A stretch of DNA of 64,000 nt from Terriglobia bacterium (GTDB lineage Bacteria > Acidobacteriota > Terriglobia > Acidiferrales > UBA7541): contig JBGQHO010000007.1 of NCBI GenBank assembly GCA_041497955.1, positions 15,691 to 79,690 on the forward strand, in the 5' to 3' direction. Position 1 is the stretch's first letter, and every line of letters begins with the position of its first letter. The notes beneath the pieces were generated by a model, which saw only the letters and a list, made by a program, of their open reading frames with translations, did not search any database and was not told the DNA's origin. Shown here piece after piece: positions 18,835-60,587 of the stretch. The translations under genes were made by a program, and so were the position numbers.

Positions 18835-18880
18835 AGCCCGTTCTCCTTGCTCGGTGTCGCTTCAGCCTGCGCGGCGCTCG

Positions 18881-19213: not shown

Positions 19214-19282
19214 TCCGCCTCCTCAAAACAGGACTATGTTCCGGAGCCACGAGCAGGAAACTCTTCGCCGCTTGCGCAAGGC

Positions 19283-20336: not shown

Positions 20337-20613
20337 AAGCACCCCCTTGGCCGCCCCAAGGGCAGAGTCCACTTACCATTCAGCAAGTTCCGCGCCGCGC
20401 GCCGCCTTGGATGAACCCGGAGCCAAGCCATTAATTTTCTATAACTTCGTAGCCCCACGCGCTCGCAACGCCTCGGCCCAATTGGAGGGAAAGCGTTGAA
20501 ATTCGCCTCGTCCTGCGCTCCTGTGCGTGATATGCCTCAAATCAGGCAGCTTTCGAAGGACCAGTCCACCTTACAAACTACTGAAAACATTATCACTGGC
20601 TACGTCTGAGTTT

Positions 20614-22146: not shown

Positions 22147-22151
22147 GAGCC

Positions 22152-24753: not shown

Positions 24754-24853
24754 GGGGGCGGACATGACGAGAACAGTCCAAGAAGAGATGGGCCTTCAAT
24801 CGACAGGCAGCTCCGTTCATTCGCCGCGCCCTAACGCCTCCCGGGAGTGTTCT

Positions 24854-30312: not shown

Positions 30313-30326
30313 TAAAGTGATCTCAA

Positions 30327-37319: not shown

Positions 37320-37559
37320 TGTCTGCCTCCCACCTGAATCAAGCACTTGCCCTGCCAAGAAAGCATGTTCCTTGCGTTGCGCCAACCCGTGTTTTGACGG
37401 GAGCTTACGGACACATGGAGGGCTTCCGCCCGACAGCGATTAATGCTGTGTCTGAGGCGGCTGGCGCAGGTTCGTGCGCGATGTGGCGCAAACAGCCCCG
37501 GCGCGCTTCTCTACATCTCCGCAAGTCCCTCATTTTTTGTGAGTTGCGCCGCTTCCGGC

Positions 37560-37575
37560 TGGCATCGAAGCTGCT
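37560..37575 (+). promoter_or_regulatory. Candidate sigma-54 (-24/-12) promoter upstream of the PFOR gene
   Basis: TGGCAT-N5-CTGCT, with GG and GC separated by exactly 10 nt (consensus TGGCAC-N5-TTGCW). The -12 element is 27 nt upstream of the GTG start at 37602. Confidence 0.3.
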
Positions 37576-37601
37576 CCCCTGTCACTGAAGAGGAGAAGCC
37601 C

Positions 37602-40600: not shown

Positions 40601-41168
40601 CGGCGGGCAGAGCTCGACCGCAACGTTCACCGGCCAGGACGCCAAGATGGCCGCGGTAGGCCTTGCGCAGCCCGGCAAGCGTGAGCGGCGCAAAGAGCTG
40701 GCACAGATCGCGCTGATGCATCCGCATGTCTTCGTCGCGCAGACTACCGCCGCGCACACGAACCATTTTTACAAGAGCATCCTCGCGGCCAACGAATTCC
40801 CGGGCCCGGCCGTGGTGGTCTGCTACGCGAGCTGCATGCCGGAGCACGGCGTGGCGGACGATCGCTCGGCCGCGCAGGCCAAGCTGGCTGTTGAATCGCG
40901 GATGTTCCCGCTGCTCGTCTACGACCCGCGCAAGGGCGAACGCCTCCGCGAATGCCTGAGCCTGCAGGGGAACCCGGCGTTGAAAGAAGACTGGTACATG
41001 GACCCCAAGAGCAGTGAACCCGTGGACTTCATCGCGTTCGCGAAGACCGAAGGCCGCTTTGCCCGGCACTTCGATGCCGAAGGCCGCCCGGACGAATCCC
41101 TGCAGGGGGCCCGACAGGAGCGCCTGGAGAACTGGCATCGCCTGCAGGAACTCGCGGGGCTGCGATGA
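37602..41168 (+). CDS. nifJ: Pyruvate:ferredoxin (flavodoxin) oxidoreductase, single-chain PFOR
   Basis: 1188 aa from the GTG preceded by AGGAG. N-terminal ACAYPITPSTPMG. Two ferredoxin-type clusters (CVGCMECVNECP, CKGCGECMTVCG). TPP motif GGDGALFDIGFQSLSRML...NTGGQ. Confidence 0.9.
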   Translation: MPATLNATEQSNEVKGGVRATESASRFDGIPTTTDGSGAVVWVESHISQGACAYPITPSTPMGDGFAAEFSNGRRNLWDEPLEFLEPESEHSSASACEGFALAGGRVTNFTSGQGLILMKEVLYVIAGKRLPVVFHIGARALTSHSLNVHCGHDDVMGVADTGWGMLFARNAQEAADLALIARRAAEDSETPFFNVQDGFLTTHTLETVRLPEPELMRDFIGAPADRLRKLFDPAQPLLTGCVQNQDSYMKGKVAQRHFYDRVSPALARAMREYGKRTGRRYDFVRAYRMEDAEYALVGLGSMMETAEATVDYLRARGMRIGVVSLTSFRPFPTRELAAALRGCRGVTVIERADVPLAQSNPLTTEVKAALADELLRLGAAAESLPAIYSGVAGLGGRDVRPGYFVAAAKNMLQPGGRRFFVLGVKHDDALEAATDPDVRPAGAYSLRGHSIGGFGSVTTNKVLASVAAELFGLQAQAFPKYGSEKKGLPTNYYLTLASERIRLHAELNAVDFVAIQDANAFAGGDPLEGLCAGGTVYLQSSQPAGKVWTSLPATARKAIRERGIRVFALDALRIARDSASRADLQIRMQGIVLLGAFLRLTPFRERAGLHEDALFAALEKTLQKYFGKRGGRVVADNLVAARRGYNEVAEVVPPAQEERFEAKVAHHWAPVCRQGSELVAPSFCDHVIGSYACGREADLEADAYVARSLMPPSSAARRSFRTLGAEIPEFIASACVGCMECVNECPDTAILAKVVELPALEERLGHIERPELREELRKNFSVTNKYSAMFVKRGEAGGLFGLFIDPDKCKGCGECMTVCGSHNALRMRPKAELTLAAYDLGMDLFRHLPETPARYLNEKSLGDMMLAGRSLLYAGGAGSCMGCGEATAIRQMLAATGFTYGADQIGIVAATGCNTVFGSTYPFNPFAVPWTNSLFENAPADAMGIRIRWNQEGHAKRRLWVIGGDGALFDIGFQSLSRMLMSGLDIKVLVLDTQVYSNTGGQSSTATFTGQDAKMAAVGLAQPGKRERRKELAQIALMHPHVFVAQTTAAHTNHFYKSILAANEFPGPAVVVCYASCMPEHGVADDRSAAQAKLAVESRMFPLLVYDPRKGERLRECLSLQGNPALKEDWYMDPKSSEPVDFIAFAKTEGRFARHFDAEGRPDESLQGARQERLENWHRLQELAGLR

Positions 41169-42127: not shown

Positions 42128-42403
42128 ATGCCCTCACAGGATCGCGGTCGGGTAACTATCGATCCCGATGAATGCAAGGGATGCGGGCTTTGTCTGGACG
42201 CCTGCCCGCCGAAGTGCCTGGCCTTCGCCAAGGACTTGAGCCCATACGGCGTCCACCCGGTGCTGTACCTGGGCGAAGGCTGCACGGGCTGCGGCATCTG
42301 CTTCTACGCCTGCCCCGAACCGGGCGCGATCACGGTCTATCGCGCGGCTCCCCCGCCCAAGCTCGCCAACCAGCCGGCCGCGCAAGAGACTCCCCGTGCG
42401 TGA
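42128..42403 (+). CDS. 2x[4Fe-4S] ferredoxin, delta subunit of 2-oxoacid:ferredoxin oxidoreductase
   Basis: 91 aa with [12 protein letters not shown] and [12 protein letters not shown]. Confidence 0.85.
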
Positions 42404-43460
42404 ACTCTCAAAGGGCAACGTCGCCGTTGTAAAGGGCGCCATCCTGGCGGGCTGCCGCGCCTTCTACGGCTATCCCATCACGCCGGCCAGCGAAATCACC
42501 GAAGCTGCCGCGCTCTATCTGCCACAGGTGGGCGGGGTGTTTCTCCAGGCGGAAAGCGAAGTCGCAGCGATCAACATGGTGTACGGCGCCGCTTCAGCCG
42601 GCGTGCGCGTGATGACGGCATCGTCGGGGCCGGGTCTCAGCCTGATGCAGGAAGGCATCTCGTATCTGGCCGGCGCCGAGTTGCCGTGCGTGATCGTGGA
42701 CGTCGTGCGCGGCGGGCCGGGCCTGGGCAACATCGCGCCGGAGCAGAGCGACTACTTTGCGCTGGTCAAAGGCGGCGGTCACGGTAACTACCGCAACTTC
42801 GTCCTCGCGCCTGCGTCCGTCCAGGAAATGTCCGACCTGACGCAGCTTGCCTTCGATCTGGCCGACCGCTATCGCAACCCGGCGATCGTCCTGAGCGACG
42901 GCTTCATCGGTCAGATGATGGAGTCCATGGAGTTGAAGGCCCTCCCGTATGAGGCGCTGGACAAACCCTGGGTGGTGTGCGGCACGCCCGAAACGCGCGC
43001 GAATCTGATCACTTCGATTCAGCTCGAACCCGACGCGCTCGAGGCGCACGTGCGCCACCTCGAGGCGAAGTACAAGTTGGCGGAAGAATTGGAAGCGCGC
43101 CACGAGCTCTATCACGCCGAAGACGCGGAGGTGCTGTTCGTCGGCTATGGCATCACGTCGCGCGTGCTGCGCTCGACGGTCGAACAGGCGCGCGAGCGCG
43201 GCGTGCGGGCCGGGCTTTTCCGGCCGGTCACGCTGTGGCCATTCCCCAAGCACGCGCTCGCCCAAGCTGCGCGCCACGTCCAGATGGTGTTCGTCGTGGA
43301 GATGAGCCTCGGCCAGATGGTCGAAGATGTGCGGCTGACGCTCGAAGGCCGCGTGCCGGTGGAGTTCTACAGCCGCGTGGGCGGCAACGTGCCGCAGGCG
43401 GAGGAGATTCTGGAGCAGTTGCTCAATCGGCTTGTGCCCACAACCGAGTGGGGCGTCTAG
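42396..43460 (+). CDS. 2-oxoacid:ferredoxin oxidoreductase alpha subunit
   Basis: [28 protein letters not shown], typical of POR/KOR/VOR alpha. GTG start overlaps the delta gene by 8 nt. Confidence 0.9.
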
Positions 43461-43478
43461 CGCCGGAGGAGAATCGTC

Positions 43479-44912
43479 ATGCAGGACTACGAAGTAGTCC
43501 ACGCGAAGTCGCCGGTTTTCTACGACCGGTACGAGCGCAAGTCGGAGCTCCAGCAGCAGACGCACTACTGCCCCGGCTGCGGGCACGGAGTGGTGCACAA
43601 GCTGGTCGCCGAGGCCGTGGCCGATCTCGACTTGCAGGACCGCACGATTTTCGTCAGTCCGGTGGGCTGCTCGGTTTTCGCGTACTACTACTTCGACGTG
43701 GGCAACGTGCAGGCGGCCCACGGACGCACGCCCGCCGCGGCAACGGGCCTGAAGCGCTCGCGTCCGGAAAGCATCGTCATTGCGTACCAGGGCGATGGCG
43801 ACCTGGCCGCCATTGGACTCGCCGAGATCGTGCACGCCGCAAACCGCGGGGAGAACATCTCCGTCTTCTTCATCAACAACGCGATTTACGGGATGACGGG
43901 CGGGCAAATGGCGCCCACAACTTTGTTGGGCCAAATCAGTACGACCACGCCCTTCGGGCGCCGCGCCCGCAACGAGGGTTTTCCACTGCACATGGCCGAG
44001 CTGCTCGCCACGCTACAGGCGCCCGCATACATCGAGCGCGTCGCACTTTCCGACAACAAGAACGTGATGCGCGCGCGCCGCGCGGTGCGCAAAGCGATCG
44101 AGAACCAGACGAAGGGGCTTGGTTTTTCCTTCGTCGAGATCCTCTCGCCTTGCCCGACGATCTGGAAGATGACGCCCACCGAGGCGCGCGACTGGGTGGC
44201 GGAGAAAATGATTGCTGTGTTCCCGCTGGGCGTGCTGCGCGACCGTACCGAGCTGCTCACCGATAACGGCGCGCCACCCGTGCGCTCCGTCGAAGAAGTC
44301 CTCGGCGTGAAGTCGGTCAAGGCATCCGAAGCCGCTGAATCCGCCGGCCGAGCGCTGCCGACGAAAACCTGGACGGCGAAGATTGCGGGCTTTGGCGGGC
44401 AAGGCATCCTGCTGCTCGGCCAGATGCTGGCCGAAATGGGCATGCGCGAGAAGATGGAAGTAAGCTGGCTGCCGTCCTACGGGCCGGAAATGCGCAGCGG
44501 CAGCGCGCATTGCCACGTCTGCGTTTCCGACGGACGCATCGGCAGCCCGCTCGTCGAGCACCCAAACGTACTGATCGCCATGAATGAGATTTCGCTGCGC
44601 AAGTTCGCGCCGCAGGTGGCGCCGCATGGAGTCGTGTTCTATAACGCCGCCGTGCTACCCGTGGGCTACGATGTGCCGCAGGGGCGCGTGCTCTGCATCC
44701 CCGCATCAGAGATGGCCGACCACCTTGGCAGCGCCAAAGTCGCCAACGCCGTCATGCTCGGCGCGCTCATCGAGCTCACCGACTGGCTGCCCGCTGCAAC
44801 CGCTGAAGCCGTGCTGGAAAAGACGATTCGCAACGCCGCGCTGCTCGAAATCGATCGGAAAGCGCTCGCCGCCGGCCGCGCTTTCGTGCAGGAAGCAGTT
44901 CGCCGCCCTTAG
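43479..44912 (+). CDS. 2-oxoacid:ferredoxin oxidoreductase beta subunit (TPP-binding) fused to the gamma subunit
   Basis: Beta: YCPGCGHG and GDGDLAAIG...NNAIYGMTGGQ. The C-terminal ~190 aa is gamma-like (KIAGFGGQGILLLGQMLA...SYGPEMRSGSAHCHVCVSD). Confidence 0.9.
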   Translation: MQDYEVVHAKSPVFYDRYERKSELQQQTHYCPGCGHGVVHKLVAEAVADLDLQDRTIFVSPVGCSVFAYYYFDVGNVQAAHGRTPAAATGLKRSRPESIVIAYQGDGDLAAIGLAEIVHAANRGENISVFFINNAIYGMTGGQMAPTTLLGQISTTTPFGRRARNEGFPLHMAELLATLQAPAYIERVALSDNKNVMRARRAVRKAIENQTKGLGFSFVEILSPCPTIWKMTPTEARDWVAEKMIAVFPLGVLRDRTELLTDNGAPPVRSVEEVLGVKSVKASEAAESAGRALPTKTWTAKIAGFGGQGILLLGQMLAEMGMREKMEVSWLPSYGPEMRSGSAHCHVCVSDGRIGSPLVEHPNVLIAMNEISLRKFAPQVAPHGVVFYNAAVLPVGYDVPQGRVLCIPASEMADHLGSAKVANAVMLGALIELTDWLPAATAEAVLEKTIRNAALLEIDRKALAAGRAFVQEAVRRP

Positions 44913-45021: not shown

Positions 45022-45098
<77 letters not shown>

Positions 45099-45321: not shown

Positions 45322-45933
45322 ATGGTCACGGAACTGATCGGCCGGGGCAGCCGCTGGCTGCTCGACAAGATCGTCGGCGCGCTTGCCACCGTTGGTATCA
45401 ACCCCAACATGCTTACCTTTTTGGGGATGCTGGTGAACGGCTGGGCAGCGGTGCTTTTTGCGTGGGGAGAGTTCCGCTACGGCGCCGGCGTGATTTTCCT
45501 TGCGGGCTTCCTCGACATGCTGGACGGCCAGGTGGCGCGCCGGCGACAGCGCGTTACGGCGTTTGGCGCGTTCTTTGATTCGACGCTCGACCGCTACTCG
45601 GACATGGCGCTCTACATGGGCTTGCTCGTTTACTACGCAAGTATCGGCCGCAACTCGTACGTCATCCTCGCGGCGGTGGCCACGGCGGGCTCCGTGATGG
45701 TCAGCTACGCACGGGCGCGCGCCGAATCGCTGATCCCCACCTGCAAAGTCGGCTTCATGGAGCGTCCCGAGCGGCTGGTGCTGTTGATCATCGGCGGCGC
45801 GCTGAACCGCATGGCACCCGTGCTCTGGGTGATCGCCGTAATCTCCACGATCACGGTGATCCACCGTATCGTTTACACCTGGCAGGAGACGCGCGCCGGG
45901 CGCACGCTGCCCGGCATTCACCTGACGCTCTAA
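45322..45933 (+). CDS. CDP-alcohol phosphatidyltransferase family protein
   Basis: Signature DMLDGQVARRRQRVTAFGAFFDSTLDRYSD, matching D-x2-DG-x2-AR-x8-G-x3-D-x3-D. Multiple TM helices. Confidence 0.85.
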   Translation: MVTELIGRGSRWLLDKIVGALATVGINPNMLTFLGMLVNGWAAVLFAWGEFRYGAGVIFLAGFLDMLDGQVARRRQRVTAFGAFFDSTLDRYSDMALYMGLLVYYASIGRNSYVILAAVATAGSVMVSYARARAESLIPTCKVGFMERPERLVLLIIGGALNRMAPVLWVIAVISTITVIHRIVYTWQETRAGRTLPGIHLTL

Positions 45934-45966
45934 CTCCCGATTCGAAACGGAATTCCCGCAACGCGC

Positions 45967-46764
45967 TCAGCCGCACATGGCTTCTTCGATGGGCCGCGCG
46001 ATGATCTCGCGCACGCGTTCCCGGAGCGCGGGAACATCCTGCTTGTGCAGGCCGCGGGTTTCAATGGTGTCGTGAATGTGCACGATGATCTTTGAAGGGC
46101 GCAGCATCCAGGTATCTTTATTGTTGAATTCGAACGCGCCCACCAGACTCACCGGCACGATCGGATAACCGAACTGCTGCGCCATGCGGAAGCCGCCGTC
46201 CTTGAACGCGCCTACGCGGCCATCGCACGTACGCCCGCCTTCCGGGAACACCACGAGGCTCACGCCTCTTTTGAGCGCTTCCCTGGTCATCTTCCACATG
46301 CGCTTCAGGTCCGAGGGCCGCGTCTCATCCGGCACGGGCACGTTGCCGAAGCGCTTCATCATCCAGCCATAGACAGGAATCTTGAAGTGCGATTCGAGCT
46401 CCAGTCCGCGGATGAATTGCGGCACTACGGAATAAAGCACGAAGGGGTCGAAGAGATTCACGTGGTTTACGATGAAAAAGCTGGTGCACTGGGGATCGAA
46501 GCCCGGCGCGCGGCGCACTTCGATCCGGGCACCCGCCAGGCGCACGACCGTCCGGCTGAAGATGCGCTGGGGCCAGTCGTTTTTGCGCGGATCAATAAAA
46601 ACCGCCATCAGGATCAGAAGGCTGCACACGAGGAAGAAATGGATCCCGCTGACGATCCAGAGGACGAGGCAGCGCAGGATTAAGTACGCCCTGCGCAGGC
46701 CCGTTTCACGCGGGGCGCGCGCGGCAGGAACGGCGCTGATTGGGTTGCCGGAAGCTGGATTCAT
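45967..46764 (-). CDS. 1-acyl-sn-glycerol-3-phosphate acyltransferase family (PlsC/AGPAT-like)
   Basis: N-terminal TM, HX4D motif NHVNLFD and a FPEGGRT motif. Confidence 0.85.
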   Translation of the reverse strand: MNPASGNPISAVPAARAPRETGLRRAYLILRCLVLWIVSGIHFFLVCSLLILMAVFIDPRKNDWPQRIFSRTVVRLAGARIEVRRAPGFDPQCTSFFIVNHVNLFDPFVLYSVVPQFIRGLELESHFKIPVYGWMMKRFGNVPVPDETRPSDLKRMWKMTREALKRGVSLVVFPEGGRTCDGRVGAFKDGGFRMAQQFGYPIVPVSLVGAFEFNNKDTWMLRPSKIIVHIHDTIETRGLHKQDVPALRERVREIIARPIEEAMCG

Positions 46765-47659
46765 ACGAACACGTCGAGCGCCCCAGGCAGCACTTCGAGC
46801 GTCTGGCAGTCGAGCGTCAGCACCTCGCCATCCACCATGACGTCTACCGGTCCCGCGAGACTGAATTCGATCCGCCGCGCGGCGCGGCGCGAGGCCAGCG
46901 AGTGCCGGATGTGCGAGCCGTCATACAACGTATGCAGGTTTCCGAGCAGGCCGAGGCGCCCGATCGGCCCCCAGCGCACGCACTCCACGAGGCCGTCGCC
47001 CGTATCTGCCAGCGGAGCGATCATCATTGTACCGCCGGTGAATTTGCTGTTGTTGAAGCTGAGAAACAAACAGCGGCGGCAATCGAACTCCGTGTCGCCG
47101 TCTGCGCGCAGCGGGAACGCGCGGCGGTCCAGCCGCACCAGACAGGTAAACACGCCGAAGAGGTAGCCCAGGTGGCCGAGGCGCTTGAAACGGCGGTTGG
47201 TCAGCACCGCCACGTCTGCGGCGAAGCCCATGCTCAGGAGGTTGATGAAGTAGAGCACGCCTTCACGATGCGTAAGCTTCATCACGTCACAAGGCCGCGT
47301 GCGCCGAGCGAGAAGCGCTTCGATGGCATGATCTGCGCCGCGCTCCGTGAAATCGCGCAGAAAGGAGTTGCCGGTGCCGAGCGGAAGGAACCCGAGCCGC
47401 ACGCGCTCGCCGCGCGCAGCTTCGGGGAAGAGGCCGTTCACGATTTCGTAGGATGTTCCGTCGCCGCCGACAGCGAGGAAATCCCGATAGCCCTGCGCGT
47501 AAGCCTCTCGTGTCGCGCGGATGCCGTCGCCCGATGCATGCGTTTCGCGGATTTCGAGCGCCATCCCAGCAGCGCGCAGCTTTTCGAGCGCCGGCCCGGC
47601 CAACCTGCCGCAGCGGCCGTTGCCCGCCGCCGGGTTGACCACGGCGAGGAACCTGTTGT

Positions 47660-47663
<4 letters not shown>
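46761..47663 (-). CDS. Diacylglycerol-kinase catalytic-domain lipid kinase (YegS/LCB5-like)
   Basis: Start at a GTG overlapping the upstream stop (GTGA). [12 protein letters not shown] and [14 protein letters not shown] motifs. Confidence 0.8.
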
Positions 47664-49368
<1,705 letters not shown>

Positions 49369-49372
<4 letters not shown>

Positions 49373-49611
49373 AGGCGCGATTGGATGCGGGAAGCAAGTG
49401 TGCGGAAGTCGGTCACGCCCTGCATTTCGTAATCGGGCAGCTCGATACCAAAATGGCTCTCGAGGCGCGTCAGCATTTCGAGCGCCTGCAGGCTGTCAAT
49501 GCCGAGCTTCTTGAAGAAGTCGTCATCGGCAGAAAGTTTCTCGCGCGGCACCTTGAAGTGCGTAGCCGCCAGGCTCAGGATTTCTTCGGTCGTTTGTTCC
49601 AGCGTTCGCAT
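49369..49611 (-). CDS. Acyl carrier protein (discrete, non-housekeeping context)
   Basis: 80 aa with phosphopantetheine attachment motif [11 protein letters not shown]. Confidence 0.85.
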
Positions 49612-49647
49612 TTGGTTTCTCCGCTTGATGCTACAGCGTCGCCCAGT

Positions 49648-50451
49648 TCACGGCAGATAGGGTAGAGCGGCCGTGCTCTCGATGAACTTGCGCAGGCCCT
49701 CCATCACCGCCGGCCGCGTGAAGAGCTCGCAGAAAATCTCAATCTCCTGCCGCAGCTCCGCATAGGGAATCGGTTTCATAAATCTCTTTGCAGCAATCGT
49801 CGTGGCGCGGTCGAATTTCTTAATCTGGGCGGCGGTCGCGCGCGCAATCCTCAGCGCTTCGCCTTCAGCGGCCAGTTGGCTGACAAGCCCTGCCGCGGAC
49901 GCCTTCGTCGCGTTGATGCTGCGGCCGGTGAGCAGCAGGTCGCGGACCACGCCGTTGCCCAGGTCCCGTTTGAGCCGCGGGATGCCGCCGAAGCCGGGGA
50001 TCAGCCCCAGGCGCAGCTCAGGGAAACAGAAGCGCGCCATCTTGTCAGCGATCACGAGGTCGCAGGCGAGCGCCAATTCCAGGCCGCCGCCGAAGCAGAC
50101 GCCGTGCACGGCCGCGATCGTCACCACGGGCGCTGCGTCAAGCGCATTCAGCACGAGGTGAATCCTCTCGAGGAACTCGCGCACGCCCGCCACCGCGGCT
50201 GCTTTGTCCATTTCTTGTGTGCGTGCGTAGAGTTCGCGCAGGTCAGCGCCCGCGCAGAAACCAGATTTTAGCGAGCTATAAATGATTACCACACGCACGG
50301 CGGCGCCTGCGCCCTCGAGCGCCGAGGCAAAGCTCTCGAACTCCTCGAGCGTGGCCGAGCCGAGCTCGTTGCAGGGCGGCCGGTGCAGCTCCAGCTCCAC
50401 CACGTCATCCGCCAGCGTCCAGGAGAGCGTCTTGCCCTTGAAGTCCTTCAT
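49648..50451 (-). CDS. Enoyl-CoA hydratase/isomerase (crotonase) family protein
   Basis: FCAGADL oxyanion-hole motif and the [14 protein letters not shown] segment. Confidence 0.85.
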
Positions 50452-52097
50452 GCCTCTTTCCTGCAGTACATCGCTTCGATCTCTCCCGCAAAGCGCGCGA
50501 GGATGGCGTCGCGCTTCAGCTTGCCGTTTGCCGTGAGCAGGCCATTTTCAATGGTAAAGGCCTCTTTTTCCAAGTGAAACGCGCGGACCTGCTTGTAGTG
50601 GGGAAGGCTGGCATTCAAAAGATCTATCTGCTTCTGCACCCCATCGGGAGCGGCCACTCCGGTCACAATCGCCGTCAGATAGCCGCGCCCATTGCCCACC
50701 AGCACCACCTGCTCCGCGCCTGGAAGCCCTCGCAGCAGTTTTTCCTCAATCGGCTCGGGCGCAACATTGTGGCCCGAGTTCAGAATGATCAGGTTTTTCA
50801 GTCGGCCGATGATGTGCCAGTTGCCGGCTTCGTTCACTTCGCCCTGGTCGCCGGTATGAAACCAGCCATCGTTCAGCACGCGCGCGGTTTCCGCGGTTCG
50901 GTTCCAGTAACCCGGGAAAATATTCGGTCCGCGCACCAGGATTTCGTCGTTTTCGCCGGCGCGCATTTCAATCCCCGGGATCGCCGGGCCCACGCGCCCG
51001 GGCTCGACGTGCCGGGGATCGTCCAGCGTGCAGATCGCCGTAGTCTCCGTCAAGCCATACACCTGGAGCACCCGGATGCCCAGCATATGGAAGAAAAGCT
51101 GGGTCTCTTTGGCCAGCGGCGCCGAGCCGCAAATCAGCGCTCGCAGATTGGGCCCCAACCGCTGCCGGACCGTGGAGAAAATCATCCAATTGGCCAGCGC
51201 CAGCCGCACAGAATCAAGCCACTCAGACTTCCCCGATTGCTTTCGCTCCCATGCCGCCCGGCCGCTGCGGAAGAGTGCGAGTGCCATGCCTCCGCGCTTT
51301 GCCAGATTTTCTTCGACGCCGCTGCGGATGCGCTCGAGCAGGGTGGGCACGTTCAGGAAGTAGTGTGGCTCGGCGAAGCGGAGTTCGTCGGCGAGCTTTG
51401 TGAGGTCGGTCGAAAGCGTCAGCACGCTCGCACGTGAGAGAGCCGTCAGCAGCAGGATCCACGAGCCCGCAAAGCAGAAGGGCAGGTAGTGAAACACGGA
51501 ATCGGGCTTTGCCGGCGAACCCATCAGTTGATCGAGCCGCGCCGTCGTGCAGGGCACCATATGGTTCACGTTGCCGACGGTCAGGATCACGCCCTTGGCT
51601 TCACCCGATGTGCCCGAGGTGTAGATGATCGTCACCGGATCGGTCGCGGAAAGCGTCGCTGGCGCGGCCACGCGATCGGCTGCCGTCGCGCCAGCAAAAA
51701 TGTCGCTGAGCAGGACCCGCGGCGGAGCTTCAGGCCAGACCTTTGTAATGGCTTCGCGGAGCGCTTCGTCGCCGCACAGAATCAGTGACGGCTGGCAGTC
51801 CTGCATGATGGCCACGAGCTCCGCGGGCGCCTGCCGAGCGTAGAGCGGCACGACGATGATGCCCTCGGCCATTAGTGCCAGGTCTGCGGCGGCCCAGCGG
51901 ATGCTGTTGTGCCCCAGCAGCGCGCAGCGATCCCCTTTTTTCAAGCCAGCGCGGGCCAGATGGCCGCGCGCTTCAGCAACGAGACCGAGCAACTCCGCGC
52001 CGCTTGCGTTCACCAGACTGCCATCGCGCGCCTCACACAGCACGGGGCGCTCGAGAGCTTGTCTGATCCGTGCGAAAATGTCTTCGAGGAAATTCAA
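50448..52097 (-). CDS. Long-chain fatty-acid-CoA ligase (AMP-dependent synthetase), second copy
   Basis: [19 protein letters not shown] and TGDQG motifs. 4-nt overlap with the crotonase gene. Confidence 0.9.
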
Positions 52098-52148
52098 GGA
52101 TTCGTCGTTCTAGCCAGTGCGCCAACTTTTTTCTCTGGGCAGCGTCCC

Positions 52149-53558
52149 TCAGATGTAAGTTTCGGCCAGCTTGCAGAGATTCGGACTGAGCGGCGGCAAG
52201 TACTCCTCCCAGCCGTGGATGCCGCTGCGAATCGGAAACTCTGGGTAGCGCTGCTGGACGTGTTGCTCCAAATAGACGCCCATGCGCGCCATGAGCTTCA
52301 GGTTCTTCGCCACCGTGCGGCCGATGCCCGCGCGCATGCACTCGCGCTCCTGCCACAGCGTCTCCAGCAGGGCCTCGAGCTTCGTGCCCAGCTCAGGATC
52401 GTCGACTTCGAGCAGCAGGTGTGTGTGGCCGCGCTCGCGCATGAGGTTGCGGATGCGTTCATCCATGGTGACGCCCACCGAAGGCAGCAGCGTCGGCATG
52501 CTCGTTACGATGGCGTGGTACCGCGACGACACCATCAAGTGGCACGCGCGCAGGATGCTCACGAGCTGGTACATGTCGTAGTCTTCAGATGTGAAGACCG
52601 GCGCCCCGCCAAGAGGCTCTGCGACCGCGCGGCACGCACGCGCGTCAAGCCGCTCCATGCCGACCAAAATGATGAAGACGCGGTGCCGCTTGCGGAAGGC
52701 GTCTGCGGCATTCGCGAACGCCGTCAGATAGCGGCTGTACGCTTCGGAGACCTTCGGGCCGGACTTATGAAAATAGACAGTGCGGTAATGGCTGTCTCTG
52801 TAGGCGCCGGTTGTGACGTGCGCGAGATACTTCGCAATGGAAGCCTTCACCGGCCACCAGAAGGGATTGATGGGGCAGAGCACGAGAACGGGCGTGGTAC
52901 CGTCCCACCCCGCGCGCGTGAGCTCCTGGCGGCCGTATTCAGGGCCATGCGGCTCGAAAGTCCAAGCTGTGTCGGTGCCGAGCTCGGAAGGTACGCCGAG
53001 CCGGCCGAGGGCAGTCTGCGATTCCTCGCTGCGCGTGATGATGAGCGACTCCCGGCAATACCGCGCGCACATCTTGGCCAGCAGCGGGTCCATGTCGCCC
53101 GCTTCGGCACCGTAGCCCACCGAAAGCTTATTTTCTGCCGCGGCGATGCCCAGCGAGCCGATCATCATCGTGGTGAGCGCGTTGGCGAACTTGCTTTTGA
53201 ACATGGAGCCTTCGCACGCCACCACGCCGTGGTTCCTGCGCACTTCTTGGTAGAGGAACGGTGGGAAAATGTCGGGCAGCTTCACCTGCTGCGCGCCCTG
53301 GAAATAGCCGCGCGTGCGGTCGAAATTCTGCGTCATCACGCTGATCGCGAGGTCGTCGTCGCCCAGCACGCGACGCACCTGCCGGACAATCTCCTCGACG
53401 CGCAGGTCGGAGCCCGTGTTGCGCGTGCCGTTGTAGGTGGCGAAGAGCAACTTGAGTTTCTGCCCGGGCCGCCAGCGCTCGCCCGCGCCCAGCATCCACC
53501 CGAGCTTGGTGCGCTCGATCAGGCTGCTGACCCACGCTTCGAGCAACAGGTCGGTCAT
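52149..53558 (-). CDS. Polysaccharide pyruvyl-transferase-like (CsaB/PS_pyruv_trans fold) protein
   Basis: 469 aa. N-terminal [21 protein letters not shown] resembles [21 protein letters not shown] and SSRYHAIV (cf. R.H..I) segments. Assignment from remembered motif pattern only. Confidence 0.5.
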
Positions 53559-54706
53559 TCGAATGATCCCCCGGCGGCGACGGTGCCCTCAGCCGCCCCG
53601 GGCCACTCCTGGTAGTTATACGTAAAGCGGTTTTCGCGGCTGAACTTCAGCAGCGGATAGCTATACTGCGAAAACGGTGCGGGCGCGCGGCCTAACTCCG
53701 CAACCACGCGCCCGTTGTCGAACACCGTGTTCCACACCAGATACGGCCAGAAAACTCTTAGCAGCGATGCGCCGCCGCCGATGTTGCCGCTGCGGTTCGA
53801 GAGGAAGTTCACCGTGCCTCCGAAGGCGCTTTCGAGGCTCGGCACGAAAACGGGCTTTGTCTTGCCCTGCGCGCAGGCCAGGGCTTCGGTGAGCTCGCGG
53901 AATGTCTGCGAACCCGTGCCTGAAGAGAGGTGGTAGATCTCGTGCGCTGGCTTTTCTTTCTGGTGGAGCGTCACGATGGCGTCGGCAACGTAGTCCACCG
54001 GCACGATATCCAGGCGGTCATCCGGGCAGAACGGAAGCACGGGCAGGCCTGCAAGAAATACGAAGGCGCGCACCATGTCGAACTGCGTGGTCTCGCCGCG
54101 GCGGCTGTCGCCCAGCACGATGCTCGGGCGGAAGATCGTTCGCGGCACGTCGGGCAGCAGCTCGCGGATCATGTGCTCACAGAATTTCTTTGTGCGCGCG
54201 TAGGGATCGTAGTCGGAGCGGTTCCAGTCAATTGAAGCGTCCTCGGTGACGACTTCGTTGCTCCGCATGCCCGCCACGGCCACGGTGCTAACGTGCGAGA
54301 AGCGGCGCAGACCGTGGGCGTCGCGCGCGCGCATGGCCAGCTCGACCACTTCGAGCGTGCCGCGCAGGTTCACGTTCAGGCAGCTCTTCTCGGACTTGCG
54401 GTTCAGCGAAGCGGCGCAGTGGATCACCGAATCCGTTGTGGCCACCAACTCCTTGTACTCCTGCTCGGGCAAACCGAGGAACTTGCCGGTCAGATCGCCG
54501 CGGAAAATGCGGATGCGCGCGCGGAGAAAGCCAAGGAACGTGGGGAAATCCATGTGCAACTGGAGCGCGCGCCAGAGCCGCACTTCGGCTTCGTGAGGGT
54601 CTTTCGCGCGCACGAGCAGGTTGAGCCGCTCGCCGTGCCGTTCGAGCACGCCGGCTACGAGATGCGCGCCGATGTAGCCTGTGGAGCCGGTTACGAGGAT
54701 GGCCAT
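53555..54706 (-). CDS. SDR-type thioester/fatty-acyl reductase (NAD_binding_4 family)
   Basis: [14 protein letters not shown] Rossmann motif, catalytic YARTK, and the LLVRAK......R motif typical of terminal reductase domains. Confidence 0.8.
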
Positions 54707-57087
54707 GTGGCTTTGACTTGCTCAGGCCGCGTGCCGGAAAAGCCCGATGCGGCTTCGGCGGCGGACTCCGCAGCGGCCAGCGCGCGCCGCGGGCGCGCCT
54801 CCAGCGAACGCCCCTCGATCAGCGGGTAGCACCACCGGCGCAGTGCGGGGACATGGATATTGATCCAGTACTCCCACCAGTCGATCGTGGCGTCGTCGTA
54901 CCCAAATGCCGCGCGCTCCGCTTCCGGCAGCGATTCGGAGAGCAGCCGGACGTTTTCAGCTTCGAACACATGCTCGTTGTGCAGGATGAACGGCTCGTAG
55001 AGCTCGATGAGTTTCTCGACTCGCGCGAGGTCGCGCTCCTGCCGGGCGAGCGGCGCGTGCTTCAAAACCGGCGAGGCAATGCGGTTGATGCGCTGCACCA
55101 CGGCCTTCTGCGCAGGCACAGAGAGTTTCTTGTAGCGGTTCTTGGAAACGGGGATGGATTCGAACTTCACGCGCAACCAGTTCTCGAGCCCCTGCTGCGC
55201 GCGGTAGTGCTTGCGGTGTGCCAGGGCGGTCAGCTCAATGGAGCGGCCCATGTCGCAGGGGTTTGTCGCCGACGTGGCGAGCTGATAGAGGCGCTGGTGG
55301 CGCCGCGTGACCACCGCCGCGGCAATGAGCGTGAGTCCGCGGCTCACCAGATCCACCGGGATGATGTCCAGCAGCTTGCGCTCGTTCGTGGGCAACTGCC
55401 GGAAGTGCGTGCCGAGTAGGTAAGAAAGCGGCGCAGAGGTATTGATGCCCTCGTTCCAGCCGCGAAAGGGCTTCTCCACGGACGTTTCGACAATCGAGGG
55501 CCGCACGACCGCAATTGGGAGATCGGCGCCGCGCGTGGCGATCAGCGATTCGGCCAGGCTCTTGGTGAATGTGTAGGTGTTCGGCCAGCCCAGGTGCTGC
55601 GCGCGGCGCGTGGCGATTTTCGTCAGGCGGTTGCGCAGCCAGCGCGCGCGGTTCTTGCGGATCTGTTCCTCGAGCGCCGCGGGCGAAAGATTTGTTGCCT
55701 TGCCCTTGCGCCCGAGCACCTGTCGGCGCAGCGCAGCGGTCACCTCCGGGCCTGTGGCGCGGTCTTCGACTTTGCGCACCACGTCATCGAGCGATTGCCA
55801 CTCAAGCTCCACATCGAAATCGCCTTCGTGCGCGGGCGTGTAGTTTGCTTGCAGCTCTTCTGCGACACGGCCGTCGCGCCCGCCGACGACGTAGCAGGTG
55901 GAAAGATGGACGAGCCCCGCATGGTCGGAGCTGCGGATGAAATCAATCAGGTGCGCAACCCCGGCGACGTTTGTGGCCAGCGCGTCGCGCAGGTCCGGGT
56001 TAAAGTCCACGAGACCCGAGCTGTTCACCACCAGGTCGAGTGTGCGCGCGAGCCGCGACTTCGTTTCCGGATCGAGCCCCAGGCCGGGCTGGCTGACATC
56101 GCCTTCCACCACCTCGACGCGGCCGGCGAGGAAACTCCGCAGGCCGTCGGCGTAGCGCTCGTGCAGGGCTTCGAATATCGGCGATTCCTCGACGATCTTT
56201 TCGAAACGCTTCTGCGCGGTATGTGATTTCTGCCGGCGAATCAGGAGATAAATCTTGCCGAGTTCCGGCAGGTCTGTGAGCAGGCTCACCAGCCAGACTT
56301 TCCCGATGAAGCCCGTCACGCCGATGAGCAGGACGTACTTGCCGCCGAGCGCTTGGCGCACGGAGAACGGTTCGGCGCGCTTGCGCGAGTCAAACAGCAC
56401 GAGCGGCCGGTGGCTGTTTGGCGCAGGCCGCGCCGCCGGCCGGACCGCCGCCTCGAGCAGGTCCGGGCGCCCGCCGAGGCCCAGGTCGCGCGCCAATTGC
56501 TCGCGGGACAGTCGGCCATCGGGATTGCGTTCGAGCAGAAGCGCCAGCGCGCCGCGAGGCCGGATCACGGGTCCGCGCAGGCGGCCCGTGGCCACGCCGT
56601 CGCGGAACTCAAGCCGGTTGGCGATCAGCCGCTCGACGCCCAGGTGGTTTGCCAGCGGGCGCATCACGTGGTCGAGCCCCTGGCTGACCAACACCACCGG
56701 GCCGTTTTGTTGCACCCAGGCTGCAAGCTTCTCGACGCCTTTGCGCTTGAGCTGGGGCTTCAAGACGTAATTGAAATATTCTTCGCCAAGCAGGTCCAGG
56801 CGGTCGCGGCTGACGCCCCGCAGCAGCGTATGCAGCACGCGCGTGGCAAAGACGCGGTCGGTGAAATAGAGCAGCGGACGCAGCAGGGTCAGCAGGGCAA
56901 AGCCGGCGCGTCGTGCCCAGCGCTCGGCAAAGCTTCGGGCGTGCCATGTGAAGTAGGCCACCGGCCGGCCTGCGCTCAGGTCGAGCAGGCTGCCTTCCAC
57001 GCGCCAGAAGGTCGGCTCGCCCGCCCCGGCCTGCGGGCCGTGCGGCTGGGCTGCCGCTGGTTCGAATTGGACGCTTGGCGTGCTCAA
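54691..57087 (-). CDS. Fusion protein: HAD-IB-like N-terminal domain plus fatty acyl-CoA reductase (FAR) domains
   Basis: 798 aa. Residues ~30-200 resemble HAD-IB hydrolases ([41 protein letters not shown]), but the DxDxT nucleophile motif reads VEGSLLD. Then the FAR core: [27 protein letters not shown], and a C-terminal sterile-like region. Confidence 0.75.
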
Positions 57088-57233: not shown

Positions 57234-58349
57234 CTAGACGCCCCAGCCGTAGCGCTCCAGGTGTTCGAGCGAGGCGCGCATTTCCGAGCGAATCTGCGTA
57301 ATGAGGCCGCTGCAACCCACGATCGAGCTGTCCGGCTCGGCAATATCTGGGGTGCGATAACCCGCGGCCAGGACGCGGTCCACGGCCGCCTCCACCCAGT
57401 CGGCTTCGACGTCGAGTTGGAAGGCTTCGCGGAGCATCAGGCTGGTACACAGGATGGCGCCGATGGGGCAGGCAACGTCTTTCCCGGCAAGTTGCGGCGC
57501 CGAGCCGTGGATGGGCTCGAAAAGCGGCGGGCCAAGGCCGGAGCTCATCGAAGGCACCAGCCCGATCGAGCCCACCAGCGCCGCGGCGGCATCGCTCAGG
57601 ATGTCGCCGAACATGTTCGAGGTCAGCATGACGTCGAACTGTCCGGGCGCCAGGATGAGCTGCATGGCTGCGTTGTCCACGTAGAGGTGCTCGAGGCGCA
57701 CGGCAGGGTAGCTGGCGCCGAGGCGCGTCACGGTGCGCCGCCAGAGGGAAGAGCTCACCAGCACGTTGGCCTTGTCTACCGACGACAGCCGCCCTGCGCG
57801 GCCCTCTGCGCGCGCGAACGCGAAGCGCGCGACGCGCTCGATCTCGTCGGTCGAGTACGTCTCCGTGTCGGAGGCGCGCTCGGTGCCGTTTTTTTTCTCC
57901 GTGTGTCGGTGGCCGAAGTAAATCCCGCCGGCCAGCTCGCGCACAATCTCGAAATCAATCGAGCGGGTTCGCGCAGGCTTCAGCGGCGAAATCCCACGCA
58001 GCGGCTCTCGCAGGCGAATCGGGCGCAGGTTGACGTACAGCCCCAGCTCCTGGCGCAATGCGAGCAGCCCGCTTTCGGGGCGCTTCCCGATCGGCAACTC
58101 GTCCCAGCGGGGCCCCCCGACCGCGCCGAGCAATACGGCGTCCGCTGAGCGGCAGGCATGCAGCGTTTCCGCCGGAAGCGGGTTTCTGGTGGCGTCAATG
58201 GCCGCGCCGCCGATGGGGAACTCAACGATCTCGAAGCGGTGGCCGAATTCTGCCGCGCAGTCCTCGAGTACGCGCGCAGCGGCGCCAATCACTTCCGGGC
58301 CGATGCCGTCGCCCGGCAAGAGAACGATCATTTTTGAGACAGTGCTCAT
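57234..58349 (-). CDS. leuB: 3-isopropylmalate dehydrogenase (isocitrate/isopropylmalate dehydrogenase family)
   Basis: LLPGDGIGPEV, NLRP and NMFGDILSD motifs. Confidence 0.88.
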   Translation of the reverse strand: MSTVSKMIVLLPGDGIGPEVIGAAARVLEDCAAEFGHRFEIVEFPIGGAAIDATRNPLPAETLHACRSADAVLLGAVGGPRWDELPIGKRPESGLLALRQELGLYVNLRPIRLREPLRGISPLKPARTRSIDFEIVRELAGGIYFGHRHTEKKNGTERASDTETYSTDEIERVARFAFARAEGRAGRLSSVDKANVLVSSSLWRRTVTRLGASYPAVRLEHLYVDNAAMQLILAPGQFDVMLTSNMFGDILSDAAAALVGSIGLVPSMSSGLGPPLFEPIHGSAPQLAGKDVACPIGAILCTSLMLREAFQLDVEADWVEAAVDRVLAAGYRTPDIAEPDSSIVGCSGLITQIRSEMRASLEHLERYGWGV

Positions 58350-58370: not shown

Positions 58371-59573
<1,203 letters not shown>

Positions 59574-59687: not shown

Positions 59688-60587
59688 ATGGAACTCGCGC
59701 AACTGGAAGTCTTTCTGGCGGTGGCCCGTGAGCGCAGCTTTTCGCGCGCTGCGGAAAAGCTTTATCGCACGCAGCCCGGGGTCAGCATCGTCATCCGCAA
59801 GCTCGAAGAAGCCGTGGGCCAGCCGTTATTTATCCGCGGGGCGCGCGACGTCAAGCTGACGGACGCTGGCGCGCTGCTGTGCGACTACGCCGAGCGCCTG
59901 CTGAACCTGCGCGAAGAAATCGGGCGCGGCATGCGCGATCTGGGCGGCTTGCGCCGCGGGCATCTCTCGCTGGGCGTCAACGAAAGCTCGATCCACGCGC
60001 TGCTGCCCGCGCTGGCGCGTTTCCGGCGGCTGCATCCGCAGGTGCACATCGCCGTGCACCGCACGTTTTCGCGCGACATCCCGCGCGAGGTGGTGAACTA
60101 CCGGCTGGACCTGGGCGTGGTCTCTTTCGCGCCGCAGGACGCGAACCTGGCGGCGGCGGAGATCTTCCGCGATGAGCTGACGTTCGTGGTGCCGCCACGG
60201 CACCGGCTGGCGCGGCGCCGCGTGGTAGATATCGCCGAGGTGGGAGCGGAGACGTTCGTCGCGCACATCGTAGATTCGCCCTACCGCCGGCGCGTGATTC
60301 AGCTCTTCGAGAAGCACCGCGTGCCGCTGGATATGAGCGTCGAACTGCCCACGATCGAGAGCATCAAACGGTTCGTGCTGATGGGGATGGGCGTGGCCAT
60401 CGTGCCGCGGATGTGCGTGCGTTGGGAAGTGGAGCGGCGTGCGCTGGTCGAAGTGAAAATCCGGCAGTTAAAGCTGCCGCGGCACCTCTACCTGATTTCG
60501 CGCCGGGGTGTGCGGCTCTCGCACGCGGCGCTCGCGTTCGTGCGCCTCGTGCGCGGCGGCGCGGCGCTTGCGGACGCGGGCAGCTAA
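59688..60587 (+). CDS. LysR family transcriptional regulator
   Basis: MELAQLEVFLAVARERSFSRAAEKLYRTQPGVSIVIRKLEE wHTH plus a substrate-binding domain. The first 432 codons of the 731-aa ORF are antisense shadow of the leuA-like gene. Confidence 0.9.
   Translation: MELAQLEVFLAVARERSFSRAAEKLYRTQPGVSIVIRKLEEAVGQPLFIRGARDVKLTDAGALLCDYAERLLNLREEIGRGMRDLGGLRRGHLSLGVNESSIHALLPALARFRRLHPQVHIAVHRTFSRDIPREVVNYRLDLGVVSFAPQDANLAAAEIFRDELTFVVPPRHRLARRRVVDIAEVGAETFVAHIVDSPYRRRVIQLFEKHRVPLDMSVELPTIESIKRFVLMGMGVAIVPRMCVRWEVERRALVEVKIRQLKLPRHLYLISRRGVRLSHAALAFVRLVRGGAALADAGS

Follow-up and report, generated by a model that had tools for sequence, protein, structure and literature searches.

Which lipid is assembled by a run of nine adjoining minus-strand genes (45967-57087) of a Terriglobia bacterium is the question that this locus raises. 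The genes are located in the window, that is, the whole 64-kb stretch of contig JBGQHO010000007.1 that was analysed, and they encode two reductases, two acyl-activating enzymes and an acyl carrier protein (ACP), together with a pyruvyl-transferase-like protein, a crotonase, a lipid kinase and an acyltransferase. The best reading of this operon is that of a new, disassembled variant of the elb-type ether lipid clusters. In its full form, that is, a disassembled and extended elb variant which probably makes alkyl-glycerol-type, reduced-acyl membrane lipids in Acidobacteria, the reading is given about an even chance of being correct from the sequence evidence.

Acidobacteria make ether lipids, and Ger/PlsA is absent from most of the ether producers (PMC13159169, PMC10087280). 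Some strains of subdivision 1 (SD1) make the branched type of glycerol dialkyl glycerol tetraethers (brGDGTs) at low O2 (PMC10087280, PMC13159169). Among Acidobacteria, clusters of the elb type were reported only in SD4 (PMC13159169, PMC10087280) and in SD6 sponge symbionts (bioRxiv 10.64898/2026.06.23.733905), and according to the literature S. usitatus is without ElbD and Mss is absent from Acidobacteria. The brGDGTs are among the most used terrestrial palaeotemperature and pH proxies, with Acidobacteria as their best-supported producers. The ether-bond enzymes of these mostly aerobic Acidobacteria are unknown, and the operon bears directly on the assembly of brGDGT-type lipids. Acidobacterial elb clusters were reportedly presented by Sinninghe Damste et al. 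2018, as cited by others. In the full-text literature, neither the present cluster nor its linkage to the tetraether synthase homologue treated below was found described, and that 2018 study may hold relevant screening and so a partial prior recognition.

Layout of the operon

Based on the listing of open reading frames (ORFs) and on Pfam, the run contains the nine genes given below in gene order. They are followed by the plus-strand gene and the tRNA gene that lie beyond the last of them.

54691-57087, minus strand: fusion of a HAD domain (PF12710) with a fatty acyl reductase (FAR) made of NAD_binding_4 and Sterile domains, by Pfam; 798 amino acids (aa); hereafter HAD-FAR
53555-54706, minus strand: reductase 2, a stand-alone thioester reductase (TR) of the short-chain dehydrogenase/reductase (SDR) type; 383 aa; NAD_binding_4, Pfam 165 bits
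52149-53558, minus strand: pyruvyl-transferase-like GT-B protein; 469 aa; PS_pyruv_trans, by Pfam
50448-52097, minus strand: ligase 1, an acyl-CoA ligase (FadD11/ACSL-like); 549 aa; AMP-binding and AMP-binding_C_3, by Pfam
49648-50451, minus strand: crotonase-family enoyl-CoA hydratase/dehydratase; 267 aa; ECH_1, Pfam 142 bits
49369-49611, minus strand: ACP; 80 aa; PP-binding, Pfam 51 bits
47660-49372, minus strand: ligase 2, an acyl-activating enzyme; 570 aa; AMP-binding, Pfam 237 bits
46761-47663, minus strand: soluble lipid kinase of the YegS/DgkB family; 300 aa; DAGK_cat (86.6 bits) and YegS_C (81.1 bits), by Pfam
45967-46764, minus strand: PlsC-type acyltransferase; 265 aa; Acyltransferase PF01553, 72.7 bits
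45322-45933, plus strand: CDP-alcohol phosphatidyltransferase, similar to phosphatidylinositol-phosphate (PIP) synthase, by NCBIfam scores and the CDP-OH motif
45022-45098, minus strand: tRNA-Ile(GAT), between 2-oxoacid:ferredoxin oxidoreductase genes and the PIP-synthase-like gene

Counted from the HAD-FAR end, the first two genes overlap by 16 nt and the next pair by 4 nt; then come a gap of 51 nt, an overlap of 4 nt and a gap of 36 nt, and the last three junctions are again overlaps of 4 nt. An earlier, sequence-only reading of this DNA had described nine minus-strand genes which overlap or are closely spaced; this holds, with overlaps of 4 or 16 nt and gaps of 36-51 nt, and all the domains named in it were found by Pfam. 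The true start of the kinase is a GTG at 47663, which forms a GTGA overlap with the stop of the preceding gene. Similarly, the start of the ligase 2 gene shares 4 nt with the ACP stop, and translational coupling links ligase 1 with the crotonase. Read as an operon, these junctions imply co-translation of the nine genes. The scan of the locus for promoters and terminators was uninformative.

The catalytic motifs are all intact, i.e., GxxGxxG and YxxxK in both reductases, HX4D and PEG in PlsC, and GGDG in the kinase. The same applies to the DSL site of the ACP, both Glu motifs of the crotonase and the full CDP-alcohol motif of the PIP-synthase-like protein.

The CDP-alcohol gene had been called divergent, which proved wrong: it is on the plus strand and convergent with PlsC, tail to tail, with the two stops 33 nt apart. 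Since the minus-strand tRNA-Ile separates it from the oxidoreductase genes, it is regarded as a stand-alone unit, and the tRNA-Ile (45022-45098) marks the left border of the lipid locus. Membership of this gene in an upstream plus-strand operon was considered and ruled out, because the tRNA-Ile intervenes and the upstream genes are subunits of 2-oxoacid:ferredoxin oxidoreductase.

Homology to the elb ether lipid clusters

The elbA-E ether lipid operon of Myxococcus xanthus was reportedly described by Lorenzen et al. 2014. According to PMC9131029, the operon encodes ElbA (SDR), ElbB (HAD-like), ElbC (of unknown function), ElbD and ElbE (SDR), and ElbD unites an N-terminal FAR1-like domain, an acyl-CoA synthetase (ACS), an ACP and an AGPAT domain on one polypeptide. 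The same source states that ElbD is needed for alkyl ether lipids, that the ACS and ACP activities were shown in vitro, and that the ether-forming mechanism of the Elb pathway is unknown (PMC9131029).

Proteins of ElbD architecture, fished from public data, were used as the ElbD reference set and stand in for the M. xanthus sequences. The query, in which the FAR region, ligase 2, the ACP and the PlsC core were concatenated, was searched against 1.84 billion representatives, and dozens of proteins of 1400-1650 aa matched it in three stretches in the order of ElbD. Four of these proteins were examined with Pfam and showed NAD_binding_4/Sterile, AMP-binding, PP-binding and Acyltransferase, i.e., the ElbD architecture. 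A profile of 18 ElbD-type proteins brought up numerous proteins of Pyrinomonadaceae (SD4) as well as a single one from Lujinxingia litoralis.

In BLASTP comparisons with eight ElbD-like proteins, the FAR half (residues 243-765) showed 31-38% identity at 248-379 bits and ligase 2 showed 29-33% at 241-263 bits. Judged by sequence, both are clear homologues of the ElbD-architecture proteins, and the resemblance to ElbD noticed in the sequence-only reading is for these two parts a real homology, beyond common domain names. The remaining proteins scored lower: ligase 1 with 27-34% identity (127-169 bits), PlsC with 22-30% (41-59 bits), reductase 2 with 26-35% (38-58 bits) and the ACP with 33-37% (~30 bits), the last one matching only two of the eight. 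Of the two reductases, the FAR half of the fusion is the one of the ElbD type, and reductase 2, which is of the MxaA/CAR type, matches the ElbD FAR domains weakly only. As an ElbD-type reductase, reductase 2 is ruled out by its 38-58 bits against the 248-379 bits of the FAR half.

The HAD domain (residues 27-175) is 33-34% identical to three ElbB-like HAD proteins (BLASTP, E 1e-16 to 1e-20), which are encoded ahead of ElbD in three unrelated canonical elb clusters. Free-standing ElbB-like proteins keep DxDxT or DxExT at motif I, and in the fusion RVEGS is found there. ElbE is an SDR of the NAD-dependent epimerase/dehydratase family, and reductase 2 is one of the NAD_binding_4/Epimerase type. 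With three ElbE-like SDRs, reductase 2 shares 23-26% identity at 56-63 bits in two cases and a match of 30 residues only in the third. It may nevertheless be the functional counterpart of ElbE.

Three loci with canonical elb clusters (L082, L083 and L084) have the order HAD (PF12710), Lar_N (PF09861), ElbD and SDR. In the first of these, from a Pyrinomonadaceae metagenome-assembled genome (MAG), a DAG-kinase-like gene and a PlsC gene follow directly downstream of the cluster, and 33% identity is shared between the kinase of the window and the one beside the Pyrinomonadaceae elb cluster. A third locus carries an AGPS-like flavoenzyme gene. No ElbC-like (Lar_N) gene was found in the window by tblastn of the three ElbC-like proteins, and no AGPS-like gene either.

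In the three canonical clusters, ElbC is a Lar_N protein (PF09861, LarA-like/DUF2088), encoded at L082:5985-7583, L083:6313-7908 and L084:5392-7038. LarA-family enzymes act on 2-hydroxy acids, and the Lar_N identity of ElbC may be a clue to the ether-forming step of Elb. The GT-B protein as counterpart of ElbC is ruled out, since ElbC is Lar_N in all three canonical clusters and the window holds none such.

Based on the pairwise matches and the gene contexts, the operon is considered to hold homologues of ElbB and of three ElbD parts (FAR, ACS and ACP), as well as an acyltransferase, in a rearranged form. In common with the M. xanthus elb operon it has a HAD protein, a Sterile-domain FAR, an acyl-activating enzyme, a carrier, a PlsC-type acyltransferase and an extra SDR. 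On the other hand, the ElbD functions are here distributed on four separate genes, the HAD domain forms a fusion with FAR and no longer has its catalytic Asp, ElbC (Lar_N/DUF2088) is missing, and reductase 2 is weakly ElbE-like. The GT-B protein, the second ligase (ligase 1) and the crotonase of the present operon are without an Elb equivalent, and a lipid kinase belongs to its conserved core. Taken domain by domain, the comparison with elb is thus positive for FAR, ligase 2 and HAD (ElbB), stays at family level for PlsC and the ACP, is weak for reductase 2, and finds no ElbC.

The elb-like clusters of sponge symbionts have neighbouring genes for a glycerol-3-phosphate/lysophosphatidate acyltransferase, a DAG kinase and a CDP-alcohol phosphatidyltransferase, and a split between the reductase and adenylation domains of ElbD was described for elb-like clusters (bioRxiv 10.64898/2026.06.23.733905). 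The present cluster shares with those of Acidobacteriota SD4/SD6 and Poribacteria the ElbB homologue and the acyltransferase, kinase and CDP-alcohol neighbours, and the SD4/SD6 clusters are acidobacterial as well. They differ in that the elb-like clusters of SD4, SD6 and Poribacteria retain Lar_N and an ElbD of several domains, which is divided into two pieces at most, whereas the present one is fully disassembled, has the extra enzymes and is found in Terriglobia (gp1, gp2 and Acidiferrales), for which the elb cluster is not reported in the literature consulted. Compared with the peroxisomal-type pathway (FAR1, GNPAT and AGPS; M. xanthus MXAN_1674-1676), the FAR-made alcohol as alkyl source and an AGPAT-type acylation are common, while the window is without a homologue of AGPS (FAD-linked alkyl-DHAP synthase, DHAP being dihydroxyacetone phosphate) and without a GNPAT-type fusion.

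In detail, HAD-FAR consists of a HAD domain at about aa 27-190 and of FAR (NAD_binding_4 and Sterile) at aa 245-765, the latter supported by PF07993 (184 bits) and PF03015 (36.4 bits) in Pfam. The FAR half carries the Rossmann motif GVTGFIG at residue 256, YTFTK at residue 505 and the C-terminal Sterile domain, and its nearest PDB sequence is the fatty acyl-CoA reductase 7eoz (155 bits). With the GxxGxxG, the YxxxK and the Sterile domain all present, it is predicted to be a fatty acyl reductase of the alcohol-forming type. In the HAD domain, motif I reads WRVEGxL instead of DxDxT in 30 out of 30 aligned homologues and the motif IV region is missing. The domain looks like a pseudo-phosphatase that was kept as the partner domain of the reductase; an active phosphatase is unlikely, since none of the 30 homologues retains the Asp nucleophile.

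For reductase 2, the best PDB match is the terminal thioester reductase of MxaA (99 bits), with the reductase domains of carboxylic acid reductases (CAR) next, and its score against TIGR01746 (140 bits) is under the cut-off of 213. Because it is nearest to the MxaA and CAR reductase domains, it is classified as a reductase of the carrier-protein type, which probably acts on a carrier-bound acyl thioester.

The GT-B protein passes the gathering cut-off of PF04230 (32.2 against 25.3 bits) and remains far below that of the CsaB model (56.8 against 213). Its AF2 model (pLDDT 85.7, pTM 0.85) shows a GT-B fold of two Rossmann domains, for which Foldseek returned generic GT-B enzymes alone (TM 0.45-0.5). 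Searches of the PDB with its sequence and profile gave nothing meaningful, and the profile did not reach Pvg1p (5ax7). In CsaB, R306-x-H308 are PEP-binding residues, PEP being phosphoenolpyruvate (PMC10435577). Across 29 aligned acidobacterial homologues the GT-B protein is 70-81% identical, and its invariant R346-Y-H348 resembles that CsaB site, a likeness in the motif and not in a formal alignment. The putative family assignment rests on the Pfam match, the sub-threshold CsaB match and the invariant R-x-H. With CsaB, Pvg1p and WcaK (PF04230) the protein shares the Pfam family, the predicted GT-B fold and the R-x-H, but it is ~100-150 aa longer and far under the CsaB equivalog cut-off. Its acceptor is probably no sugar, because the gene sits in a lipid operon without polysaccharide genes, and its role would be to link the reduced chain through a C-O bond to a C3 or head-group unit.

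Ligase 1 scores 188 bits against NCBIfam FadD11, and both ligases fall into the class of long-chain fatty-acid ligases. The crotonase keeps its two catalytic Glu residues, with the motifs GGGLE and PELRLG, and its nearest PDB sequences are 3-hydroxybutyryl-CoA dehydratase and EchA8. The ACP carries the DSL phosphopantetheine site and reaches 40.9 bits against the model of the housekeeping AcpP (cut-off 70.45); by its sequence it is taken as the dedicated carrier of the operon, which ligase 2 probably loads.

The kinase has DgkB and YegS as its nearest PDB sequences, GGDG at residue 69, and a score of 113.6 bits against TIGR00147, just below the cut-off of 118.65. DAGK_cat, YegS_C and GGDG together assign it, as predicted, to the soluble lipid kinases of the YegS/DgkB type. 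In PlsC, the PlsC/AGPAT motifs are present as HVNLFD (HX4D) at residue 101 and PEGGRT (PEG) at residue 174, which points to a lysophosphatidate (or 1-alkyl-glycerol-3-phosphate) acyltransferase. The PIP-synthase-like protein has the complete CDP-alcohol motif D(x)2DG(x)2AR(x)8G(x)3D(x)3D. Its two top matches are archaetidylinositol-phosphate synthase (NF040950, 167 bits, cut-off 180) and phosphatidylinositol-phosphate synthase (NF045883, 135 bits, cut-off 170), both just below the cut-off.

Conservation in Acidobacteria and the Tes neighbour

The relatives were scanned with HAD-FAR as the query in one genome per species, and the best 80 loci were taken for tblastn of all window proteins. HAD-FAR has >5600 relatives at E <= 1e-10, of which the best 120 listed all share the three-domain architecture. 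In the scan by species, relatives were present in more than 572 genomes at the least, and the operon is conserved in hundreds of soil Acidobacteria. The best 80 are all from Acidobacteriota. The nearest among them, with 73% identity, belongs to a 'gp2' MAG; after it come Candidatus Acidiferrales, Terriglobales/Acidobacteriaceae and some MAGs labelled as Blastocatellia. The genome of the window is itself of the gp2/Acidiferrales type.

The order of the core is fixed as HAD-FAR, reductase 2, GT-B protein, ligase 1, crotonase, ACP, ligase 2 and kinase. It is kept in essentially every locus that is long enough, i.e., ~60 loci with 55-85% protein identity by tblastn. Since this order recurs in ~60 independent acidobacterial loci at such identities, the arrangement is not due to chance.

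PlsC follows the kinase in 31 of the 80 loci, which form the type of the window. The convergent PIP-synthase-like gene adjoins PlsC in 27 of these 31 and also in L085 and L086. Both genes are restricted to the clade of the window and are not next to the kinase in loci of the Terriglobales type. As both are missing there, the conserved unit is one of eight genes, and PlsC with the head-group gene is a clade-specific extension. The dedicated head-group step proposed in the sequence-only reading needs correction in so far as the two genes are outside the conserved core.

In the loci of the Terriglobales type, the kinase is followed by a thioredoxin-like (CxxC), a VKOR-like membrane protein and an esterase-like gene as a conserved trio, with no PlsC next to it. 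The trio was located in three of these loci from the following positions onward:

L014:20566-21521 and following: trio, Terriglobales-type locus
L029:20353-21245 and following: trio, Terriglobales-type locus
L076:20353-21341 and following: trio, Terriglobales-type locus

Small extra ORFs adjoin the ACP gene in some relatives. For instance, an 87-aa PDDEXK_3 ORF is placed between the ACP and ligase 2 genes (L085:14293-14556), and a 120-aa ORF without family between the crotonase and ACP genes (L081:13899-14261). These cases indicate that the operon tolerates insertions at the ACP junction.

Directly upstream of the operon and on the same strand, a leuA-leuB pair is located in the window. It consists of leuB (57234-58349, minus strand) and a short leuA-like gene (58371-59573, minus strand), whose LeuA/homocitrate-synthase-like product of 400 aa has no match to the C-terminal regulatory domain. 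A divergent LysR-type regulator gene (59700-60587, plus strand) adjoins the pair. Of the 31 PlsC-type loci, 18 have the pair together with the cluster, and a link to the supply of primers for iso-branched fatty acids is conceivable.

In a Terriglobia homologue on a 4.2-Mb contig, a gene for a 706-aa radical SAM protein is placed directly upstream of HAD-FAR. The protein matches the model of the tetraether lipid synthase Tes (NF045702) over positions 1-483 of 486, with 319.9 bits against a cut-off of 450, and in the PDB it matches the archaeal GDGT-MAS 7tol alone (E 4.6e-60). Compared with archaeal Tes/GDGT-MAS, the relatives thus have a full-length model match, yet a score below the equivalog cut-off.

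Among the Terriglobales-type loci, 29 reach >=8 kb upstream of the cluster, and by tblastn 13 of these 29 have the Tes homologue on the same strand and up to 10 kb upstream. It adjoins the cluster directly, with gaps of 220-540 nt, in L017, L030 and L063 and, outside the 29, in L050 and L081, and it lies 4-8 kb upstream in L014, L041, L067, L075 and L079. One of the adjacent genes has the following position:

L081:3844-5964: Tes homologue, radical SAM; NF045702 320 bits

For chain coupling in the membrane-spanning lipids of Acidobacteria, no gene family other than Tes is currently proposed (PMC10087280, PMC13159169), and the function of bacterial Tes homologues is unproven (PMC13159169). The proximity of Tes ties the cluster to the chain coupling of membrane-spanning lipids by association within one order. 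The relevance to acidobacterial ether and membrane-spanning lipids that was suggested earlier gains support from these Terriglobales relatives, in which a Tes homologue neighbours the cluster.

Proposed product, rival explanations and surroundings

For the preferred reading, an elb-type pathway to alkyl-glycerol lipids, the following order of reactions is conceivable. Ligase 2 would adenylate a long-chain fatty acid, probably iso-branched, and load it on the ACP, as its homology and that of the ACP to the ElbD ACS/ACP suggest. The FAR domain, with or before reductase 2, would reduce the thioester to the fatty aldehyde or alcohol. In the most speculative step, the GT-B protein, ligase 1 and the crotonase would join the reduced chain to a C3 backbone by a C-O bond. 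The kinase, in line with the function of the YegS/DgkB family, may phosphorylate the resulting alkyl(acyl)glycerol. In the clade of the window, PlsC would then acylate the product and, after CDP activation, the PIP-synthase-like enzyme would add an inositol-phosphate head group, as expected from their families; no inositol-1-phosphate synthase was found in the 64-kb window. In the Terriglobales relatives, the Tes homologue may couple chain ends, leading to membrane-spanning lipids, a step proposed from the association.

Several observations weigh against this pathway. There is no known ether-bond former in the cluster, as AGPS, PlsA/Ger and ElbC/Lar_N are all absent from it, and the acylation and head-group genes are clade-specific. 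The likeness of PlsC and the ACP to ElbD is at the general family level only (30-59 bits). Stand-alone FARs (43-47%) and ligases (43-49%) are nearer in identity than the ElbD-like proteins, which were retrieved with a concatenated query that by construction favours multidomain matches. The Tes homologue is found in none of 29 PlsC-type loci and, by tblastn, not in the window. The genes between Tes and the cluster are variable and unrelated, i.e., an MFS transporter, a shikimate-kinase-like protein, an ABC ATPase and a pyridoxal phosphate (PLP) enzyme. With a window that is without Tes and such unrelated intervening genes, the linkage could be inherited synteny in one order. Finally, the cluster appears near-universal in Terriglobia, and most cultured SD1 strains have little or no ether lipid under standard conditions (PMC10087280, PMC13159169). 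With a near-universal cluster and few ether lipids in SD1, either its expression is conditional or its product is something else.

One rival reading is that the operon provides fatty alcohols or aldehydes which end in non-ether products (for example wax esters, alkyl phosphates or 1,3-diols of long chain), with no glycerol ether. Ligase 1 would then form the acyl-CoA, the crotonase would act at the enoyl/3-hydroxyacyl level, FAR would reduce the thioester, and the kinase would phosphorylate the alcohol or diol. The FAR resembles alcohol-forming acyl-CoA reductases (7eoz, 155 bits) and its nearest non-fusion relatives are stand-alone FARs. The crotonase, to which ligase 1 is translationally coupled, keeps both catalytic Glu residues, DAGK_cat kinases include sphingosine and other alcohol kinases, and a recognised ether-forming enzyme is absent from the window. 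Nevertheless, no wax synthase/DGAT gene is located in or beside the cluster in all the loci examined, and the homology to ElbB and ElbD, with kinase and PlsC neighbours in common with canonical elb clusters, points to an ether pathway. In addition, PlsC and the PIP-synthase-like gene in the clade of the window imply a glycerophospholipid as the end product, and the literature consulted on acidobacterial lipids is without mention of free alcohols, wax esters or diol lipids as membrane lipids (PMC10087280, PMC13159169). Such non-ether products are thus considered unlikely.

Even more doubtful is the salvage or remodelling of lipids. Here, an Aas-like ligase 2 and the ACP would re-acylate lysophospholipids with PlsC, the kinase would recycle diacylglycerol, ligase 1 and the crotonase would feed exogenous fatty acids, and the reductases would be accessory. 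PlsC does score 55.9 bits against the models of acyl-[ACP]--phospholipid O-acyltransferase (Aas), the kinase is nearest to DgkB, and both ligases are of long-chain fatty acid ligase types. On the contrary, the operon opens with the two reductases and the GT-B gene, which are its most conserved genes and are translationally coupled. About half of the loci do without PlsC, on which salvage would hinge, and neither a dedicated ACP nor a thioester reduction is needed for salvage.

A small secondary-metabolite cluster like those of nonribosomal peptide synthetases (NRPS), with reductive release of a diffusible lipid aldehyde or alcohol signal and not of a membrane constituent, is very unlikely. In its favour, an adenylating enzyme, a carrier and an MxaA-type terminal reductase make a typical reductive-release module, and pairs of crotonase and fatty-acid ligase occur in the synthesis of DSF-type signals. 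However, ketosynthase (KS), condensation (C) and tailoring domains are absent, gene order and 55-85% identity are kept across hundreds of species of several orders, unlike in accessory biosynthetic clusters, and PlsC, the lipid kinase, the PIP-synthase-like gene and the Tes homologue are found in association with the genes.

Returning to the alkyl-glycerol pathway, the C-O bond could, with low probability, be formed by a scheme that starts from PEP and is drawn purely from the gene content. The GT-B protein would move the enolpyruvyl group of PEP onto a fatty alcohol provided by ligase 2, the ACP and FAR. Ligase 1 would turn the 2-alkoxyacrylate into its CoA thioester, the crotonase would hydrate the 2-alkoxyacryloyl thioester to 2-O-alkyl-glyceroyl-CoA, and reductase 2 would reduce the latter to the O-alkylglycerol. 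Phosphorylation of this alkylglycerol by the kinase and acylation by PlsC would follow. Such a scheme would assign a role to every gene, including the puzzling second ligase, the second reductase and the crotonase. If true, it predicts that the ether-bound glycerol carbons are derived from PEP/pyruvate and not from glycerol-3-phosphate or DHAP. That the cluster and the Tes homologue of Terriglobales form the missing oxygen-tolerant route to alkyl-glycerol/brGDGT-type lipids, with an ether chemistry undescribed for lipids, is a quite improbable extension.

Being Terriglobia-wide, homologous to ElbB/ElbD and linked to Tes, the operon provides a concrete set of 8-10 candidate genes. A second, differently assembled version of Elb could help to pinpoint the ether-bond enzyme, a step that is also open in myxobacteria.

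The 64-kb window contains no other lipid genes of the kinds looked for, i.e., Tes, Mss-like, AGPS or inositol-phosphate synthase. An 880-aa ORF (24719-27361, plus strand), which has no Pfam match, is found near a gene for a histidine kinase with a protoglobin domain (27821-29110, minus strand), which may sense gas or O2. The histidine kinase gene is adjoined by those for a second kinase and a sigma-54 response regulator (29191-31787). A block of respiratory and haem genes extends over 9023-23576. It includes a HemN-like radical SAM gene (10558-12051), c-type multihaem cytochromes, either fused to cytochrome b or next to it (12209-18502), and the ResB/CcsA genes of cytochrome c maturation (20527-23576). 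Pyruvate:ferredoxin oxidoreductase (PFOR) is encoded at 37443-41168, and two genes for 2-oxoacid:ferredoxin oxidoreductase (OFOR) subunits at 42396-44912. Together, the haem block, PFOR and OFOR suggest a microaerobic or facultatively anaerobic lifestyle.

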